Below are positions 1,653 through 18,618 of a stretch of 63,874 bases of DNA, in pieces. Source of the DNA: a virus; the IMG/VR virus record IMGVR_UViG_3300037510_000075; one strand, 5' to 3'. The first letter of the stretch is position 1. The number at the start of each line of letters is the position of its first letter. The notes under the pieces are model-generated. The model had not been told where the DNA came from. It did no database searches and saw only the letters and a list, made by a program, of their open reading frames with translations. A program made the translations under genes and the position numbers.

Positions 1653-2327
1653 TTAGGCCGCAGCCTGTTCCGGGCGGACTTCCGAAGCCAGTGCATCACG
1701 GGCGGCCTTTTTTGCACGCTGGACAGCCGACCGGGATTCGCCCTTGGGGTTCTGAGGCTTGATTTCAGCCTTGTCGCCGCCGGTACGCAGAATGGTGAGC
1801 GTATTGCCGGTTTCGACCAAGCCGTTGATCCAAGCCTTCGTGACTGCGACTTCTTCGGGCGTCATCCTCTGCCCTGCGGGAGCTTCTGCATTCAGCTTGT
1901 CTACCTTGCTCGCCCAGCGTGACATCATACCCTTGAAATAGGCGATGTTGGGCTGAGTGAACGGGCGATTAGCACGGGACTTGACTTCGGCGTCCTGAGT
2001 CCAGTCCTTGCCCATAGCTTCTTCGAGCTTGGTCTCTTCGGGCTTGCCGGTGACTTCGGCCTTGCCCTTGACATCGAACTTGACGGGGGCGAAGTCCTTG
2101 AACCACTTGGCGAGACCAGCCACCACCATGCCCGGAGGCAGAGAAGCGAGCAGGCGCTCGGCCAGAGTGATATCACCGTGAGCCTTGAAATGGGCGAGAC
2201 ACTGGTTGGCATTCTCGCGGATCATGGCCAACAGTTTAGTGCCAGACTTGGCAATCTTGTCCTGCTGTTTCTTGATCTTTGAGGCGCCCCAGAGTTTCAG
2301 CCCCTTGTTTGTGGTAGAGTTTTCCAT
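1653..2327 (-). CDS. hypothetical protein, GC-rich foreign composition
   Basis: ORF 1653..2348, with the likely start at the ATG at 2327 (MENSTTNK), which has an AAGAGG SD 7 nt upstream. GC3-rich codon usage is unlike the rest of the genome. I recognise no family. Confidence 0.6.
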   Translation of the reverse strand: MENSTTNKGLKLWGASKIKKQQDKIAKSGTKLLAMIRENANQCLAHFKAHGDITLAERLLASLPPGMVVAGLAKWFKDFAPVKFDVKGKAEVTGKPEETKLEEAMGKDWTQDAEVKSRANRPFTQPNIAYFKGMMSRWASKVDKLNAEAPAGQRMTPEEVAVTKAWINGLVETGNTLTILRTGGDKAEIKPQNPKGESRSAVQRAKKAARDALASEVRPEQAAA

Positions 2328-2332
2328 TGTAA

Positions 2333-2449
2333 ACCTCTTAATGGACACCCTAGCACATTGCTTTAGAGGGAATCTCTATTGCAACGCTAGGTGTTAACCT
2401 ATTAAGAGGTAAACTAGTAATAGACTAGCAGCTAACGTTGCAATACGCT
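2333..2449 (-). promoter_or_regulatory. structured 5' UTR with SD-sequestering helix and competing helix
   Basis: ACCTCTTAAT (2333-2342, the complement of the SD ATTAAGAGGT of the 224-aa ORF) is perfectly complementary to ATTAAGAGGT at 2401-2410. A second 13-bp inverted repeat with 1 mismatch (ATTGCAACGCTAG 2377-2389 / CTAACGTTGCAAT 2437-2449) crosses it. Confidence 0.4.
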
Positions 2450-3232
2450 CATATTTAGTGCTGTTAGTTAGCATTGTGTTAGAAGGTCTCTAGTAAATCC
2501 TCTAACTTCATACAATTAACCGATCAACTAGAATAGGGGTAGCTTTCCCTGCCAGTAAGACAGTTTCTACTGACAATATTAGGTCTCTATGTGACTAGTC
2601 AAGGTATCGCAACCTAAGAGACCTAAGCGATTGTGTTTACGTAAGCAAAGTGAGACAAACAAACTAACATTATTCTAACCCGGAACGGATGAATACCTTT
2701 TAAGGTAAGTCACCCCTAATAGTAGCCCTTATTGGGCTCTGCAAACACGGAAGAAGAATAAGAATTAGCTTGTTTGCCTTACGCTGCTAACGCAGCACGC
2801 TGGTAAACTTAAGTCCTACCAGCTAAACCAGAGGCTCCCTATGCTTACAGCTTGGCCTATGCTGTAAAGCCTCTTCTGGCAACCTTCCCGTCAAATGCTA
2901 CTAAGAGCGGCGGGGCGACTAGGGGTTTATCTAGTCTGTGGTCTACAGGCTTGTGAATACGCGCTTCCTGTTGCCTTCATAAGAAACTGCCTCGCACCCT
3001 AATACCCAAGCCCTAGAGCTTAGCTTAGAGACACAAGCAACCGGCTAGAGTTGTCCCGTGCTCAAAGAGTGCGAGCTACCGTTTCTAACGGCTGGATTTA
3101 AAAGACTAGCTACTAATCCCCTTTCAGGTTCCACCAGCCTCGGAGTTGCCCCCTCAGTTAGCTTCCCCCTAGTCAAGGGTGTTCGCTGGTCTACACCATG
3201 CGCTACTATCGGTCAGACTTGTGGTCCGCCTT

Positions 3233-3263
3233 AAATAGCACCCTTCAAAAGAGGGTGCTATTT
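3233..3263 (-). terminator. 12-bp perfect hairpin downstream of the 111-aa ORF
   Basis: AAATAGCACCCT-tcaaaag-AGGGTGCTATTT. The A/T-rich ends make it symmetric. It lies about 85 nt after the stop at 3347. It has no long U-tract, so it may instead be a processing or stability element. Confidence 0.45.
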
Positions 3264-3346
3264 AAGAAGGATTTAAGTGAGAGCATATAGCAGGAATAGA
3301 AATAGAAGCAACACCAACCCTGCTAGGCTGTCCTGCCAATACTGCC

Positions 3347-3682
3347 TCACAGAGTACCGTCCTTGAGAGATCGAACCTTGCCACCATGCCCTAGTTTGTT
3401 AGGCGAGATAGACTTCGGCTTAGGGAGATGAATCCCACGCTTAGTGTCTTTGATTGTCGAATAGTTCGGATCGTAACCTGAGCGGTATAACCCGTGAACC
3501 ATGGTAGCCTCATAAGGCTTAACCTTGGCGTAACCTTGGGAAGTAGGGAAAGCCTCCTTAGCAGCCACAGTGCGGATAGTCTCCATATTGCTATGGATGA
3601 TTTCTGCCCGTCTTGCTTTGAAGGATTGCCATAGCTCCTTGCGGAGTTGGCGTTCCCGCTTCCCTAAACGAGCCTTGCTCAT
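3347..3682 (-). CDS. basic 111-aa hypothetical protein (GC island)
   Basis: ORF with a GAAAGG SD upstream of the ATG. It is Lys/Arg-rich and I recognise no family. Confidence 0.55.
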   Translation of the reverse strand: MSKARLGKRERQLRKELWQSFKARRAEIIHSNMETIRTVAAKEAFPTSQGYAKVKPYEATMVHGLYRSGYDPNYSTIKDTKRGIHLPKPKSISPNKLGHGGKVRSLKDGTL

Positions 3683-3855
3683 TTAGAGTACCTTTCTTGT
3701 TTAACGTCCGGTGAGAGCCACTCAGACGACGAAGGCATACTCGCACAGGCCACCTAGAGAGTCACCTAAATAAATAGTTAGAATATTCACGAGATATTAC
3801 GAACCAGCTAGAATAATTCCAGTTAGCAGGTCCGGCTAGGGCCCACCAAGAGGGT

Positions 3856-3911
3856 TAGACCCCTGCAGTAGCTACCCGCTCACTGATCCTAGACCCCTGA
3901 TAGAGCCCCTG
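3856..3911. repeat. iteron-like direct repeats TAGA(G)CCCCTG x3
   Basis: TAGACCCCTG at 3856-3865 and 3890-3899, immediately followed by TAGAGCCCCTG at 3901-3911. CCTCCTTAG is also repeated, at 3983-3991 and 4029-4037. Confidence 0.8.
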
Positions 3912-4053
3912 AGAAGCCCGTACAGTGGCTCCAAAGCAGTCCCCTTAGTCGTACTGCCCCAACCACTACTGCCCACCAGTGGCCTCCTTAGAGCCTCTAA
4001 TAGACTTTCTACCACAGATAGCTAAGACCCTCCTTAGTGGTGCGACAATCTGA

Positions 4054-4140
4054 CCCCTTGACAAGAATTGAGCATGGTCAGCAGTGCTAAATCCAGTGTG
4101 ATTTCAATGAGTTAGCAATGTCAAGGGGGTGGGGGAGGGG
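4054..4140. repeat. 10-bp inverted repeat CCCCTTGACA / TGTCAAGGGG (55-bp spacer) running into a G-tract
   Basis: The arms are at 4054-4063 and 4119-4128. GGGGGTGGGGGAGGGG lies at 4125-4140, at the right edge of the GC island. Confidence 0.8.
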
Positions 4141-4402
4141 CAGTTTGTCGCAGCCTGTAGCGTAAATATGCCTCCGATTTGTATTAAAAATATTATACAA
4201 AATTTTCACTTTTTCTATGCCCAAAACTGCAAAATCTGATGATGCTGAAAAACCCCGACATTTTAGAGAGCTAAAAGACCAACAATATCAAATACTTAGT
4301 AATAGCATGTACAAGGTTTTTAAATAGTCTAAGCAAACCACATCAAAGAGTGAGCTAACTAATTGATAATATTACCCTTTTAGTTTTGAGAGATTAGGGG
4401 GC

Positions 4403-4431
4403 TTGACAAGCTTTTTGAAATTTGTTATAAT
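4403..4431 (+). promoter_or_regulatory. consensus sigma70 promoter for the plus-strand (late/virion) block
   Basis: TTGACA (4403-4408), 17-nt spacer, TATAAT (4426-4431), with a TGT extended -10 element. Confidence 0.8.
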
Positions 4432-4911
4432 ATATGTATTAAGAAGGGAAGCAATAAAGAGGATTGCTGTTAGCTGTTTATCAACTACTAACTGACTAAC
4501 AATTAGATAACTACTCTACATGAAAACTACCCCTTCCGTGAATAATGAATAATTATATTTAATTAGTAAATCAGCTATTCTAATATTTTAAAGAATCCCT
4601 TAATAATTAATGAGATCGGGTAGCCTATAAGAGTTAGGCGAATCTAAAATAATAAATATTATAATTATTTCCTGTTTTTTGTGTTTAATTGATGCTCTCG
4701 GCTCGAAGAGGTTAGAAAATTTCTAAAATACGAACATTTAAGATTTTTAACTTTAGTCCTCATTGTATAATTAGTTTCTATTCTTTTTCTCATATTCTTT
4801 TGGTCATTCCTTCTAAAACCCACCCTTATGGGCCAACTCGTTGGGCCTTTAATATAAATCTTATAGACCCTTTTAATCTAGTTCATAAATTTAGAGTTTG
4901 GCAATACAATA

Positions 4912-5214
4912 ATGAAAAAAACAAAATCAAAGCTAGAAAGATGGCAAACTGCTGCTGAGGTTAAAGCCCATAGAAAGGCTCAAGCTAAGTATCAGAAATC
5001 TGAAGAGCAGGTCCATAAAAGAGAGAATAGAAATCTAGCCAGAAGAACTCTAGAACGAGAAGGGAAAGTCCATAAAGGAGACCATAAAGATGTTGAACAT
5101 AAAGATGGTAATGCCCTTAATAATTCTCCTATTAATTGGTTAGTAGGCAGCAGACATAAAAATAGATCGTATGCCCGTGACAAACATGCTCATAAGAAAG
5201 ACCCACACTCTTAA
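4912..5214 (+). CDS. HNH endonuclease-like protein
   Basis: 100 aa with the motif DVEHKDGNALNNSPINWLVGSRHKN (H-N-H pattern). It lies immediately upstream of the terminase genes. Confidence 0.6.
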   Translation: MKKTKSKLERWQTAAEVKAHRKAQAKYQKSEEQVHKRENRNLARRTLEREGKVHKGDHKDVEHKDGNALNNSPINWLVGSRHKNRSYARDKHAHKKDPHS

Positions 5215-5768
5215 TGGCTAAAGATAAAGATAAACGTAGACCGTTAACTTATATGCAGAAGAAGTTTATAGACGAGTTGCTATTAGACCCTACTCGTAAT
5301 GCTACTGCTGCAGCTAAGAGGGCTGGTTATACTATTAAGAATGCAAGACACTTAGGTTGGCAGCTCACTAAGCATCCGGTTATTTCAGAGATACTCGAAG
5401 AAGAAAATAAGAAGATAGCTGCAAAGCTGGGTATCACCAAAGAAAGGGTTTTCCAAGAGTTAGCTCAAATTGGGTTCGCCAATCTAAAGCATATTATGAC
5501 TCAAGATGAGAACGGTAATACAGACGTTAATTTAGCTTACCTGCCAGATGCTGTAGCTAGCCCTATTACAGAGGTTAGTGTTTCTTCTTCTGATAATAAA
5601 GGTATTAAGGTTAAAAACGTTAAAGTTAAGATAGCCGATAAAAGACAGGCTCTCATCGATATAGCGAAGATCATGGGTTGGTTTCAAGAGAAGGTTGAGG
5701 TTACTCAGAATATGAGTTTAGAGCAACTCATCGAGAAATCTTACTCCGAGGAAATTAGTCCTGCTTGA
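5214..5768 (+). CDS. terS: terminase small subunit
   Basis: 184 aa. The N-terminal HTH-like segment KKFIDELLLDPTRNATAAAKRAGYTIKNARHLGWQL is typical of small terminases. It overlaps both the HNH stop and the TerL start. Confidence 0.75.
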   Translation: MAKDKDKRRPLTYMQKKFIDELLLDPTRNATAAAKRAGYTIKNARHLGWQLTKHPVISEILEEENKKIAAKLGITKERVFQELAQIGFANLKHIMTQDENGNTDVNLAYLPDAVASPITEVSVSSSDNKGIKVKNVKVKIADKRQALIDIAKIMGWFQEKVEVTQNMSLEQLIEKSYSEEISPA

Positions 5769-8260
5769 CAGAATTAGCAGCTAGTAAGCTTAAGCTCTGG
5801 AGAGAGCGACCGGACATAATGGTCCGTGAGATATTCAATGCTATTCCAGACCCTTGGCAAGATGACGTACTCAAGAGTTTTCCTACTAATCAACGCATAG
5901 CAATGAAGGCTTCGAAGGGGCCGGGCAAGCAGCTAGCGAAGTCAATAGTCATAGAAACACCTACAGGCAAGAAACGCTGGGGTGATCTTAAAGTAGGTGA
6001 TAAAGTTTGGGCTGTAGATGGTACACCTACTACTGTCCTCAGAATCTTTGAGAATGGTGTACAGCAGTGTTATAAGGTTGTATTCGATGATGGAAGCTAT
6101 ACGTATGCTGGCCCCGAACACAACTGGTCTGTAAGAGGCAACAAAGAACGAGCCTCTGGCTCACAAGAATTTGTGACTCTGACTACTCAGCAAATAATTG
6201 AAAGAGGCGTTAGAATCACCAATGGACGTTGGCAGCAAAGACAATTTGAAATACCAATACACCAACCAGTTCAATATCCTTTTAAAGAATTAAAGATAGA
6301 CCCTTATGTTCTGGGTGTATGGTTAGGTGATGGTTCTAAAAATTGTGGCGCTTACACCGGGATAGACGACTCAATAAAGGAAGAGATTCTTAGTAGAGGT
6401 TATACTTTTGGTAAAGAAGATAAGCTAAACACAGTAAGAACTATTCTGGGTATTCTAGGCTATCTAAAAGAATTAAATATCAGCCATCTGGGCAGCCATG
6501 AAAGATATATACCAGATGAATATAAATACGGGTCTATTCAACAGAGAAAAGACTTATTAGCTGGTTTATTAGATACAGATGGTTGCATCGATAAAGATGA
6601 TGGCCATACAGAGTTTGATTCTACTTCTAAACGATTAGCTAAAGATGTTGTTTGGTTAGTACGTTCTTTAGGTGGTAAGTCTTTCATCAAAGATACTATT
6701 AAGAAGACTTGGTATTATGATGAACATAGAAATAAGGTTCCGGGTAGAGATTGTTATAGAGTTAGTTTAAGACTGCCTTTCAATCCTTTCAAGTCTATGA
6801 AGAAGGCTGTGAGATGGCGTCCTGCTCTTAAGAAGACTCAAACCAGATATCTTACACGCTATATAGATAGAATAGAGCTAGCTCATTACGAAGATTGCTC
6901 TTGTATTCAAGTTGACCACTCTCAACATCTCTATCTAGCTAATGATTTCATAGTAACCCATAATAGCTGTATAGAGGCTTGGTTAGCTTGGAACTTCTTA
7001 TTAACTCGTCCTTTTCCTAAGATTGCAGCTACATCTATTTCAGGTGATAACCTTCGAGATGGTTTGTGGTCTGAGATGGCTAAGTGGAGAGAAAAGTCTC
7101 CTCTTCTTAAAGAAGCTTTCGTCTGGCAAAAAGAAAGAATCTTCTCTAAAGCTTATCCCGAAACTTGGTGGATGAGTGCGAGAAACTGGTCTAAGTCTGC
7201 AGACATCAATTCATTGGGTAATACCCTAGCTGGTCTCCACGCAGACTACATCATGTTTATCTTAGATGAAAGTGGTGGTATTCCAGACGCTATTATGGCG
7301 AGTGCAGAAGCTGCCCTGTCCTCTTGTAAAGAAGGGCATATCATACAAGCCGGAAACCCTACTCACTTAGAAGGGCCTCTTTACAGAGCCTGTACTAAAG
7401 AAAAGGGTTTATGGAAGGTCTTCGAGATCACTTCTGACCCAGATGATCCGAACAGGTCTCCCAGAGTTTCAGTACAATGGGCTAAAGAACAGATCGAAAA
7501 GTACGGTAGAGATAATCCGTGGGTGTTGGTCAACGTCTTCGGTAGATTCCCTCCTCATTCTTTTAATACTCTCATCGGCCCAGATGAAGTTAAAGCTGCT
7601 ATAGATAGAAGATATAAACAACCAGAGTTGGTTCTTCAGCCTGTTGTACTCGGTGTTGACGTAGCCAGATATGGTGACGACTCTTCAATAATTTTCCCTC
7701 GTCAAGGTCTTCAAGCTTATACGCCTTATCAATATAAAAATCTAGACGGTACTGAAGGTGCTGAAAGAGTAATCAGTAAGTGGCGAGAATGGAATGCAGA
7801 TGCTTGTTTCATCGATAACACAGGGGGCTTCGGTGCTTCTTGGATCGATAACATGGTCAGATTAGGCAAGTCACCGATAGGTATTCACTTCTCTCAGACT
7901 GCTATAGACGAACGATATTTCAATAAAAGAGCTGAAATGGCTTTCAATCTCGTTAATTGGATCAAGGCTGGTGGTGCTCTTCCTGATGTACCCGAACTTC
8001 TTTCTGCTTTAACTCAAACTACTTATACTTTTAAAGGTGATAAGTTATTATTAGAAGCTAAAGAAGATGTTAAAGTTAAGTTAGGCCATTCCCCTGATCA
8101 TATGGATGCTTTAATGCTTACTTTTGCCCATCCGGTAGAAAAACAATCGATTAATAATCCTTTTAACCAATCAACTCATCAAATCGAATATAATCCCTTC
8201 TCTAGGGATAAAGTTTATTCTGAAACCGATCAATACGTATATAATCCTAGGAGTTTTTGA
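5765..8260 (+). CDS. terL: terminase large subunit interrupted by an intein (486-aa extein)
   Basis: TTG start overlapping the TerS stop. Walker A KGPGK|S is split by the intein. Walker B-like MFILDESGG is present, as are the nuclease motifs GVDVARYGDDSS, IDNTGGFG and DHMDAL. Confidence 0.9.
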   Translation: MTELAASKLKLWRERPDIMVREIFNAIPDPWQDDVLKSFPTNQRIAMKASKGPGKQLAKSIVIETPTGKKRWGDLKVGDKVWAVDGTPTTVLRIFENGVQQCYKVVFDDGSYTYAGPEHNWSVRGNKERASGSQEFVTLTTQQIIERGVRITNGRWQQRQFEIPIHQPVQYPFKELKIDPYVLGVWLGDGSKNCGAYTGIDDSIKEEILSRGYTFGKEDKLNTVRTILGILGYLKELNISHLGSHERYIPDEYKYGSIQQRKDLLAGLLDTDGCIDKDDGHTEFDSTSKRLAKDVVWLVRSLGGKSFIKDTIKKTWYYDEHRNKVPGRDCYRVSLRLPFNPFKSMKKAVRWRPALKKTQTRYLTRYIDRIELAHYEDCSCIQVDHSQHLYLANDFIVTHNSCIEAWLAWNFLLTRPFPKIAATSISGDNLRDGLWSEMAKWREKSPLLKEAFVWQKERIFSKAYPETWWMSARNWSKSADINSLGNTLAGLHADYIMFILDESGGIPDAIMASAEAALSSCKEGHIIQAGNPTHLEGPLYRACTKEKGLWKVFEITSDPDDPNRSPRVSVQWAKEQIEKYGRDNPWVLVNVFGRFPPHSFNTLIGPDEVKAAIDRRYKQPELVLQPVVLGVDVARYGDDSSIIFPRQGLQAYTPYQYKNLDGTEGAERVISKWREWNADACFIDNTGGFGASWIDNMVRLGKSPIGIHFSQTAIDERYFNKRAEMAFNLVNWIKAGGALPDVPELLSALTQTTYTFKGDKLLLEAKEDVKVKLGHSPDHMDALMLTFAHPVEKQSINNPFNQSTHQIEYNPFSRDKVYSETDQYVYNPRSF
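5930..6964 (+). mobile_element. 345-aa intein with LAGLIDADG homing-endonuclease domain (class-3-like, Gln1)
   Basis: Starts QLAKSIVIETPTG and ends FIVTHN|S. LAGLIDADG motifs are LGVWLGDGSK and LLAGLLDTDGCI. Block B is PEHNW, block F is CSCIQV and block G is VTHN. Confidence 0.85.
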
Positions 8261-17003: not shown

Positions 17004-18059
17004 ATGGTAGCTTTTGCCTCTAACATCTATCCAAATCTGGTAGATTGGGCACGCAGAGCTGATCCAGACGGTTCAATCGCTATTATTGCTGAGCTTCTGT
17101 CTCAGTGCAATGAAGTTATGAAGGACATGATCTGGCAGGAAGGTAATCTGCCGCTCGGACACAAAGTAACAGTTCGTACTGGTCTCCCTCAAGGTACATG
17201 GCGCGCTGCTAACATGGGTGTCGCCAGCTCAAAGTCTTTAACTGCTCAATACCAGTTCTCTATTGGTCAGCTTCAGGCTTATTCAATCGTAGATAAGACA
17301 CTCGCCAATCTTAATGGTAACGTAGCTAAGTTCCGCTATTCAGAAGATATGGCACACATCGAAGGTCTTAGCCAGCAAGTTGCTTCTGCTCTCTTCTATT
17401 CAAATGAAGCGACCAGCCCAAGTCAATTCACTGGTTTTGCACCTATCTACAATACAACCAACACTTCAACAGCTAAGAATGCTGTGAACGTGCTCGATGC
17501 AGGTGGTTCTGCCAACAGTAACCTTTCAATCTGGTTACTCGGTTGGGGCGATCATACTACATTCGGTATTTTCCCGAAGGGTTCACAAGCTGGTCTAATC
17601 TACGAAGATAAGGGTGACGTTGTTCCTCAGTACGATACCAATGGTAATCGCTTTGAGGCTTATACATCTCTGTTCCAGTGGAACGTAGGTCTTTGCGTTA
17701 AGGATTGGCGTTATAACGTCCGTATCGCTAACGTAGATACTACAACCGCTGGTCTGCAGGGTACAACTCCCCCTGATCTGTTTGCTCTGATGTCTCGTGC
17801 AGTAGTTCGTCTACCCACAGCTTCTCGCAGACTCTCTGGTATTACTGAATCTGATGCCCCCGGCGATCCAGTCCCCGGTATCTCTCCGGCTTGGTACGTG
17901 AACCGTACTGGTCGTGAATTCATGGATATTCAAGCTATCCGTGACCGTAACGTCCTGCTTTCAAGCAAGGATTATGCTGGTGATCCTGTTGTAATGTTCC
18001 GTGACACACCTATCCGTGTTGTGGATGCTCTTACAAATTCAGAGTCTAACGTAACCTAA
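17004..18059 (+). CDS. major capsid protein
   Basis: 351 aa following the scaffold gene. It has a strong SD (AAGGAA) and a distinct translationally optimised codon usage (CGT, CTG, GGT, ATC, TTC) compared with its neighbours. Confidence 0.7.
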   Translation: MVAFASNIYPNLVDWARRADPDGSIAIIAELLSQCNEVMKDMIWQEGNLPLGHKVTVRTGLPQGTWRAANMGVASSKSLTAQYQFSIGQLQAYSIVDKTLANLNGNVAKFRYSEDMAHIEGLSQQVASALFYSNEATSPSQFTGFAPIYNTTNTSTAKNAVNVLDAGGSANSNLSIWLLGWGDHTTFGIFPKGSQAGLIYEDKGDVVPQYDTNGNRFEAYTSLFQWNVGLCVKDWRYNVRIANVDTTTAGLQGTTPPDLFALMSRAVVRLPTASRRLSGITESDAPGDPVPGISPAWYVNRTGREFMDIQAIRDRNVLLSSKDYAGDPVVMFRDTPIRVVDALTNSESNVT

Positions 18060-18084
18060 TAATTCTGAATTAAAGGAAAAAATA

Positions 18085-18618
18085 ATGTTTCTTGACAACA
18101 AATTAGTATTCAATACTGACTGGCAGACCCCTCAGGCAGTTACTACAACTGCTGACGGTACACAGCTTATTGACGTTACAGGTGCAGGCTCAGGCAATGC
18201 CCCTGCGATGATCAATGGTTTTCCAGCCACAAATACATCCATAGGTGAAGACTATGGTGCGGCAGATGGTCCTTCTGTACCGTGGTTCTATATGGTGGTA
18301 ACAACCGCCGGAACTGGTGCAGGCACTATTACTGTTAGCCTTAGTGCGGCTCCCGATAACGGTAGCTATTCTCCGGGTTCTTACACCCAGATTTACCAAT
18401 CTAAGGCTTTTACAGGCAGCACACTTGCTGCTGGTTCAGTGCTTACCTTCCCTGTTCCTCCAACCCTCTATACTGAAGGTGAAGCCCTTCCAAGATTCTA
18501 TAAGGTAACTTATACAGTCTCTGGTTCTGCTACAGCCTCTGTATTAGCAGGATTTGTACTGCATCCGACTACCGGAACCATTGGTGGCAAGTACGCCAAC
18601 AACTTCCTCGCCGTCTAA
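18085..18618 (+). CDS. capsid-associated structural protein (decoration/minor capsid?)
   Basis: 177 aa with the same optimised codon usage as the capsid gene. A hairpin follows it. Confidence 0.4.
   Translation: MFLDNKLVFNTDWQTPQAVTTTADGTQLIDVTGAGSGNAPAMINGFPATNTSIGEDYGAADGPSVPWFYMVVTTAGTGAGTITVSLSAAPDNGSYSPGSYTQIYQSKAFTGSTLAAGSVLTFPVPPTLYTEGEALPRFYKVTYTVSGSATASVLAGFVLHPTTGTIGGKYANNFLAV

Follow-up and report, generated by a model that had tools for sequence, protein, structure and literature searches.

Why would a phage keep a kilobase of DNA without genes between the first two genes of its early unit? Phage genomes are tightly packed, so a gene-free kilobase where the early programme begins comes at a cost that calls for an explanation. 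The question arises in IMG/VR record IMGVR_UViG_3300037510_000075, a complete phage of 63.9 kb, whose reverse complement is the window considered here (the whole stretch of DNA that was analysed, 63,874 nucleotides). The spacer lies between a small gp1-like open reading frame (ORF) and a gp2-like gene, and all neighbouring genes are on the minus strand, so RNA from the spacer would be minus-sense. An earlier note on this DNA had proposed a large structured RNA at this place and had named a fallback, namely that the 224-aa ORF has a very long regulatory 5′ leader. The fallback fits best, with genomic context and strand asymmetry both pointing to the minus strand. We tentatively read the spacer as a strongly base-paired, untranslated segment in the middle of the first early transcript in the leftward direction, and we give this reading a probability of roughly 45%. 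That a structured minus-strand RNA is made here at all is plausible, supported as it is by two independent positional counterparts.

The phage is of podovirus type and without close cultured relatives; the best identity to any deposited phage is at most 36% for the portal protein and at most 45% for the capsid protein. Its plus-strand gene block extends from 4912 to 36038 and carries an HNH-like 100-aa gene, TerS, TerL with an intein, portal, capsid, tail proteins, and internal virion proteins. The minus-strand block runs downward from about 3682, crosses position 1, continues to 36922, and includes DNA polymerase, primase/helicase, ribonucleotide reductase, and an amidoligase. The early unit is arranged in the order AT-rich control region, gp1-like ORF, spacer, gp2-like ORF, and terminator-like hairpin (Table 1). 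Genes for tRNA-Arg, tRNA-Leu, and tRNA-Ile are found at 247–992 on the strand of the spacer. The description of the spacer as adjacent to a tRNA cluster is therefore loosely true, as these genes are about 1.4 kb away with two genes between. The ends of the contig (1–225 and 63543–63874) join inside a pentapeptide-repeat gene, indicating that the assembly broke in 15-bp repeats and that the record is either permuted or closed as a circle. Another pentapeptide gene, with DUF5758, is located at 991–1554.

Table 1. Features of the early region, in window coordinates (L100 and L094 are related uncultured lineages described in the text)
Feature	Position	Strand	Basis
Terminator-like hairpin with T run, closing the early unit	1588–1612	minus	L100 equivalent at 6518–6497
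gp2-like early gene, 224 aa	1653–2327	minus	phrog_1448, LUZ24 gp2 family; 58% G+C
ORF-free spacer between gp1-like and gp2-like genes; candidate structured untranslated RNA	2328–3346	minus	stop counts, fold excess, no Rfam match
3′ end of spacer: hairpin 2377–2445 and predicted Shine-Dalgarno pairing	2328–2445	minus	inverted repeat, minimum free energy (MFE) fold
16-pair hairpin, apical loop GUAUGA (UGUAUG motif)	2489–2532	minus	folds
10-bp helix TTAGGTCTCT/AGAGACCTAA	2579–2626	minus	listed in the earlier note and present in the fold
Y-shaped long hairpin, about 168 nt; stem of about 40 pairs, three-way tip	2631–2798	minus	folds
Hairpin, 20 pairs	3225–3271	minus	inverted repeat; pair probability 0.96
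gp1-like small early ORF, 111 aa	3347–3682	minus	homologues in L100 and L094
GC-elevated, CTAG-rich untranslated stretch upstream of gp1-like ORF	3683–4150	minus	CTAG counts; structure not unusual (fold z −1.8)
AT-rich divergent control region	4150–4911		promoter motifs

The true start of the gp2-like gene is the ATG at 2327 (protein P0004), and the spacer thus measures 1019 nt. No credible ORF was found in 2328–3346 in any frame, which bears out the claim that the segment is not coding even under a code with reassigned stops. Within 2349–3346, each of the six frames has 17–30 stops in 332 codons, and the longest stop-free run is 61 codons on the plus strand and 55 on the minus strand. Altogether, 151 stops are observed in the six frames compared with about 104 estimated from base composition. 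A recoded gene in which TAG or TGA is reassigned was considered and rejected. With a single stop reassigned, no frame exceeds 170 codons (reached on the minus strand when TAG is read through), the product of that frame is not protein-like, and none of the three tRNAs (anticodons UAU, UAA, and UCU, decoding AUA, UUA, and AGA) is a suppressor. When the spacers of L100 and L094 were included, neither an ORF consistent across the three spacers under any code nor a small peptide common to them was found, and tblastn detected no relics of the relatives' leader genes in the spacer.

The spacer is also predicted to fold better than chance would allow. Compared with dinucleotide shuffles made inside 125-nt blocks, which keep local composition, the minus strand reaches −365.1 kcal/mol where its shuffles average −309.1 (z −6.3, n = 67); for the plus strand the figures are −327.1 and −281.6 kcal/mol (z −5.8, n = 56). 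The choice of shuffle matters: the minus-strand z of −10.4 obtained with 20 whole-sequence shuffles falls to −6.3 with block-wise shuffles. Length-matched coding controls (n = 5) gave z values of +0.16, −1.04, −1.12, −2.82, and −4.87, and 600-nt coding controls (n = 12) ranged from +0.3 to −3.5. All 17 are weaker than the spacer, which is the most structured stretch tested. The closest control, at z −4.9, is the region of the major capsid gene (17500–18497, plus strand). Because the coding controls range from +0.2 to −4.9, the fold excess is real but not overwhelming. It is also uneven, with z −5.8 for 2349–2948 and z −3.1, inside the range of the controls, for 2747–3346.

The main source of the excess is the Y-shaped hairpin. 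The fold z is −4.45 for 2600–2900, and for 2626–2875 it reaches −9.3 on the minus strand and −6.8 on the plus strand (12 shuffles). The hairpin itself contains 14 G-U pairs when folded as the minus strand and four as the plus strand. The helices that the earlier note had picked out by eye are all present in the folds (for example, 2579–2588/2617–2626 and 2830–2874). The pair probability of its CCGTT/AACGG hairpin is 0.83, and many hairpins of the spacer have values above 0.9. Hairpins of 16–17 pairs tipped by UGUAUG, such as that at 2489–2532, are also seen in L100 (spacer sense positions 499–539) and L094 (601–643); these could be a shared element or could have arisen by chance.

The two ends of the spacer have predicted structures that could be relevant to gene expression. 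The 20-pair hairpin at the upstream end lies 76–122 nt past the gp1-like stop codon and is followed by the tail UAUUUAAGG. As folded, it resembles a terminator or attenuator whichever strand is read, and L100 has a counterpart of 19 pairs located 91–139 nt past its own gp1-like stop. At the downstream end, the MFE fold predicts that CCUCUUAAU (2402–2410) pairs with the Shine-Dalgarno sequence AAGAGG (2334–2339) of the gp2-like gene. The spacer thus has the attributes of a cis-acting leader: it is on the same strand as the gene, it is directly upstream of it, and it has a predicted pairing able to occlude the Shine-Dalgarno sequence. An rrn-type antitermination leader was also considered. An exact lambda-type boxA octamer, CGCTCTTA, is present as a single copy on the sense strand in mid-spacer (2909–2902), with no promoter upstream of it, and the relatives' best matches to the boxA 13-mer have three mismatches. 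We do not favor this candidate, as the octamer stands alone and is not kept in L100 or L094.

Scans that used the portal protein and the TerS-adjacent 100-aa gene as queries turned up uncultured relatives. Two of these lineages, L100 and L094 (contig G001), have the same layout; L101 and L102 are identical to L100 in the leader, and the three were counted as one lineage. In this common layout, an AT-rich divergent region with a perfect TTGACA-17-TATAAT directed toward the HNH-like gene and TerS is followed by about 0.5 kb of GC-elevated untranslated DNA, the gp1-like ORF, the ORF-free spacer, the gp2-like ORF (about 58% G+C), and a terminator-like hairpin. A tRNA is also present downstream of the gp2-like gene in L094. 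The spacer is 998–1019 nt long in this phage, 1009 nt in L100, and 1142 nt in L094, and scans of viral contigs, metagenomes, and genomes found it in these three lineages only. Neither blastn nor nhmmer detected sequence similarity or an alignable block among the three spacers, and their MAFFT alignment is essentially random; therefore, nothing shows a shared structure. Local blastn and nhmmer searches against the relatives' loci gave matches only in the AT-rich promoter region and in the 100-aa gene, which is 71–79% identical in relatives whose spacers share no sequence. A blastn search of 50,697 phage records with the leaders of this phage, L100, and L094 returned no match.

The folding bias, on the other hand, recurs. 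In this phage the spacer has z values of −6.3 (sense) and −5.8 (antisense) with 42 and 23 G-U pairs, respectively. The corresponding values are −6.1 and −3.1 with 59 and 26 G-U pairs in L100, and −5.0 and −2.7 with 62 and 25 G-U pairs in L094. The recurrence of this sense bias is the strongest indication that the structure is relevant at the level of RNA and on the minus strand. The spacer is not universal among the relatives. In its place L095 (10546–12345) carries a 304-aa ORF with an intrinsic terminator and, on the reverse strand, a 140-aa ORF, indicating gene turnover at this position, and L097 has a short control region only and no spacer. The element is thus dispensable within the wider group. 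The earlier note had held that relatives in which the region proved to be freely deletable, variable junk would speak against a large RNA, and the protein genes of L095 are in part such a case.

The control region contains a perfect TTGACA-17-TATAAT at 4403–4431 on the plus strand, which has the extended sigma-70 consensus TTGACA-17-TGnTATAAT and is aimed at the HNH-like gene, TerS, and the structural block. The same plus-strand promoter is present in L100 (9708–9736) and L094 (6189–6217 and 6516–6544), and it is the only part of the control region kept between lineages (86% over 44 nt against L100). In the leftward direction, a weaker promoter candidate is located at 4687–4658, and no convincing sigma-70 promoter was identified on the minus strand. 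A sense-strand sigma-70 promoter within the spacer was sought and rejected; TTGAC words are present, none with a −10 box. The composition of the region is also distinctive. CTAG occurs 19 times in 2300–4200 compared with 7.4 expected from base composition (2.6-fold) and 46 times in the L094 leader (3088–6150, small ORFs included) compared with 11.9 (3.9-fold), and it is near expectation in the remainder of both genomes. This over-representation disappears in a model that accounts for dinucleotide content. Because the leaders of L094 and L100 share this composition, it is a trait of the group's early leader, and a foreign GC- and CTAG-rich island was rejected.

Searches with covariance models did not connect the spacer with a known RNA. 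At the gathering score, a cmscan of the whole window with Rfam 15 returned only the three tRNAs. Over 2200–4700, relaxing the cutoff to E ≤ 10 added nothing beyond matches at chance level, to miRNA, snoRNA, and leader families. The relatives' spacers have no Rfam match either. A link to GOLLD, ROOL, HEARO, raiA, or OLE is therefore not supported. The GOLLD (RF01998) and ROOL (RF03087) models gave no match at the gathering score or at E ≤ 10, and there was no Rfam match for group I or group II introns, OLE, raiA, HEARO, or ribozymes. An intron is also contradicted by the flanking ORFs, which are both complete and have full-length homologues. To the extent that covariance models can show it, all of these classes (GOLLD, ROOL, OLE, raiA, HEARO, introns, and ribozymes) can be excluded.

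The setting is, all the same, of the GOLLD and ROOL type, being a phage genome with same-strand tRNA genes nearby. Like these RNAs, which are several hundred nt to about 1 kb long, phage-borne, and accompanied by nearby same-strand tRNAs (bioRxiv 10.1101/2024.12.08.627333; PMC5737381), the spacer would contain many nested helices. Unlike them, it matches no model and has no conserved sequence blocks between lineages. Moreover, because it is flanked by two protein genes that belong to a single early unit, it may be no more than a leader.

The gp1-like ORF matches an 80-aa ORF of L100 (8236–8478; 44% identity, E 8e-13) and aligns with a 166-aa ORF of L094 (4230–4730), and because of these matches we take it to be a real gene and the gene order to be homologous. 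The gp2-like gene belongs to family phrog_1448, which comprises 446 cluster representatives in a family profile search. Its homologues in L100 (6546–7226) and L094 (2374–3087) give 26–37% identity between lineages. This divergence is found where the lineages' portals are more than 70% identical, and the gene has about 58% G+C in phages of about 40%. Closer homologues are encoded on Logan/ENA contigs: eight gp2-like proteins (P0005–P0012) are 50–61% identical, gp1-like and gp2-like proteins identical to those of this phage occur on additional contigs, and a 79-aa form of the gp1-like protein (P0013) is encoded by a second contig. A confident AF2 model of the gp2-like protein (pLDDT 87) is all-helical, and no match was found in Pfam, PDB sequences, or the PDB by Foldseek.

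In cultured phages, gp2 homologues occupy second place from the far left end of linear podophage genomes: Pa223_002 of a LUZ24-like Bruynoghevirus, RSB1 ORF2, and, in Vibrio phage IME271, the second annotated gene. Judged by position and family, Pa223_002 is the counterpart of LUZ24 gp2, which is described as a conserved hypothetical protein without an inhibitory effect on host growth (PMC10914365). An unannotated leader of 1.0–1.15 kb precedes each of the homologues in Pa223, RSB1, and IME271. Arrays of CTTGACA promoter boxes are visible in these leaders, and the fold z is −2.2 for Pa223 and −4.3 for IME271. The left end of T7 is gene-free for about 0.9 kb, and promoters A1–A3 and the RNase III site R0.3 precede gene 0.3.

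The spacer resembles the left-end leaders of T7, Pa223, RSB1, and IME271 in being gene-free for about 1 kb and in holding long duplexes that could be processing sites. It resembles those of Pa223, RSB1, and IME271 further in preceding a homologue of the same early family, phrog_1448, that heads the early block. There are also differences. The Pa223, RSB1, and IME271 leaders have TTGACA promoter arrays and less exceptional folds, whereas no sense-strand array is seen in the spacer, and the spacer follows the first small gene, whereas the podophage leaders stand at the very start.

From layout and folding, we infer how the spacer may be transcribed, where its RNA ends could lie, and how it may be processed and regulated. 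We predict that transcription will start in the AT-rich control region near 4150–4900 and pass the small gp1-like ORF, and that a share of the transcripts will stop at the hairpin 3271–3225. The RNA that reads through would carry about 900 nt of stop-dense, G+U-rich, hairpin-rich leader ahead of the gp2-like gene, and the last helices of this leader could sequester the gp2-like ribosome-binding site by the predicted pairing. Rho binds long stretches of C-rich RNA that are unstructured and free of ribosomes, and RNase III cleaves long duplexes. The structure of the spacer would therefore protect the long untranslated RNA against both Rho-dependent termination and nuclease attack. Its long duplexes may in addition be sites of RNase III-type processing, and the structure may time or limit how the gp2-like protein is translated.

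The same stretch could instead be a stand-alone RNA, cut from the early transcript or made apart from it: a stable, large noncoding RNA of a new, fast-evolving class that acts in trans, for example as a scaffold, a host-factor decoy, or a defence sensor. The size of about 1 kb in three lineages and the sense-biased fold excess are consistent with such an RNA, as are its bounds (a strong hairpin upstream and the gp2-like start downstream), the many hairpins with pair probabilities above 0.9, and the same-strand tRNA genes a little downstream in this phage and in L094. We nevertheless consider this unlikely. The RNA would have no Rfam match and no promoter of its own that could be found, its fold excess sits in few hairpins, and it is missing from L095 and L097. 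Moreover, no sequence or motif is kept between lineages, which is unusual for ornate RNAs with tertiary contacts. What stands of the large structured RNA first proposed is that the spacer is non-coding, more structured than shuffles and all coding controls, and matched in two lineages by positional counterparts of the same size and the same excess. The evidence for its large, ornate character is thin, with the excess in one long hairpin and a few local ones and with no sequence conservation in the relatives. At the other extreme, the spacer could be functionless, fast-evolving filler in a hypervariable early region where small genes come and go, and the fold excess could be a by-product of composition (TA/AG/CT-rich, with locally palindromic CTAG) or of a few recent inverted duplications. 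The lack of conservation beside a 100-aa gene that is 71–79% identical would fit, as would the genes that L095 has in the spacer's place, the CTAG excess that vanishes under a dinucleotide model, and the one coding control at z −4.9. We find filler improbable, however, given that a useless 1 kb is rarely kept in phages, yet three lineages keep about the same length and place. The stops are denser than composition predicts, no gene relics were detected by tblastn, shuffles of the lineages' spacers that keep local dinucleotides still fold 46–56 kcal/mol worse, and the sense bias is seen in all three lineages. If the spacer is filler after all, this phage group tolerates an early unit in which genes make up only about a third of some 3.3 kb.

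The stretch could also function as DNA at the leading end of the genome, either as a palindromic spacer that binds protein or pauses genome entry or as part of an origin or packaging site, with the gene-free left end of T7 and the leaders before the LUZ24-like gp2 homologues as analogues. The analogy with LUZ24-like phages, drawn from two convergent gene blocks, would put the physical ends in the adjoining AT-rich divergent region, and gp2 homologues lie 1.0–1.5 kb from the left end in cultured podophages. Both strands of this phage's spacer fold nearly equally well, and GACTAG/CTAGTC and CTAGTCAAGG are found there as recurrent words. A DNA palindrome, however, would not show a sense excess about twice the antisense excess and more than twice the G-U pairs, as observed in L100 and L094. 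In addition, no iterons or repeats were found within 2328–3346, and the CTTGACA arrays of the Pa223, RSB1, and IME271 leaders are absent here. We consider a DNA-level role very unlikely.

The untranslated, base-paired leader that we favor may be part of how podophages time their first proteins, and it sits before a widespread family, phrog_1448. If the spacer is a functional structured RNA, it joins a growing set of large phage RNAs (GOLLD, ROOL, and others), and the persistence of position, length, and foldedness without sequence would explain its escape from family-based searches. A more speculative and quite unlikely extension is that the spacer represents a kind of kilobase early phage RNA defined by place, length, and folding rather than by sequence, evolving too fast to align, perhaps under arms-race pressure because it acts as a sponge or decoy that engages a host nuclease, an RNA chaperone, or a defence sensor. 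Should that be true, many such RNAs would be invisible to covariation-based discovery.

A distant gp2-like homologue is also found in another metagenomic phage, L008 (6000–8000), behind about 2 kb of ORF-poor DNA. The first part of this DNA is AT-rich and contains reiterated TATCTTTATTTATCT-like units, and the next 650 nt are TAG-rich with a structure that is not unusual (z −1.6).
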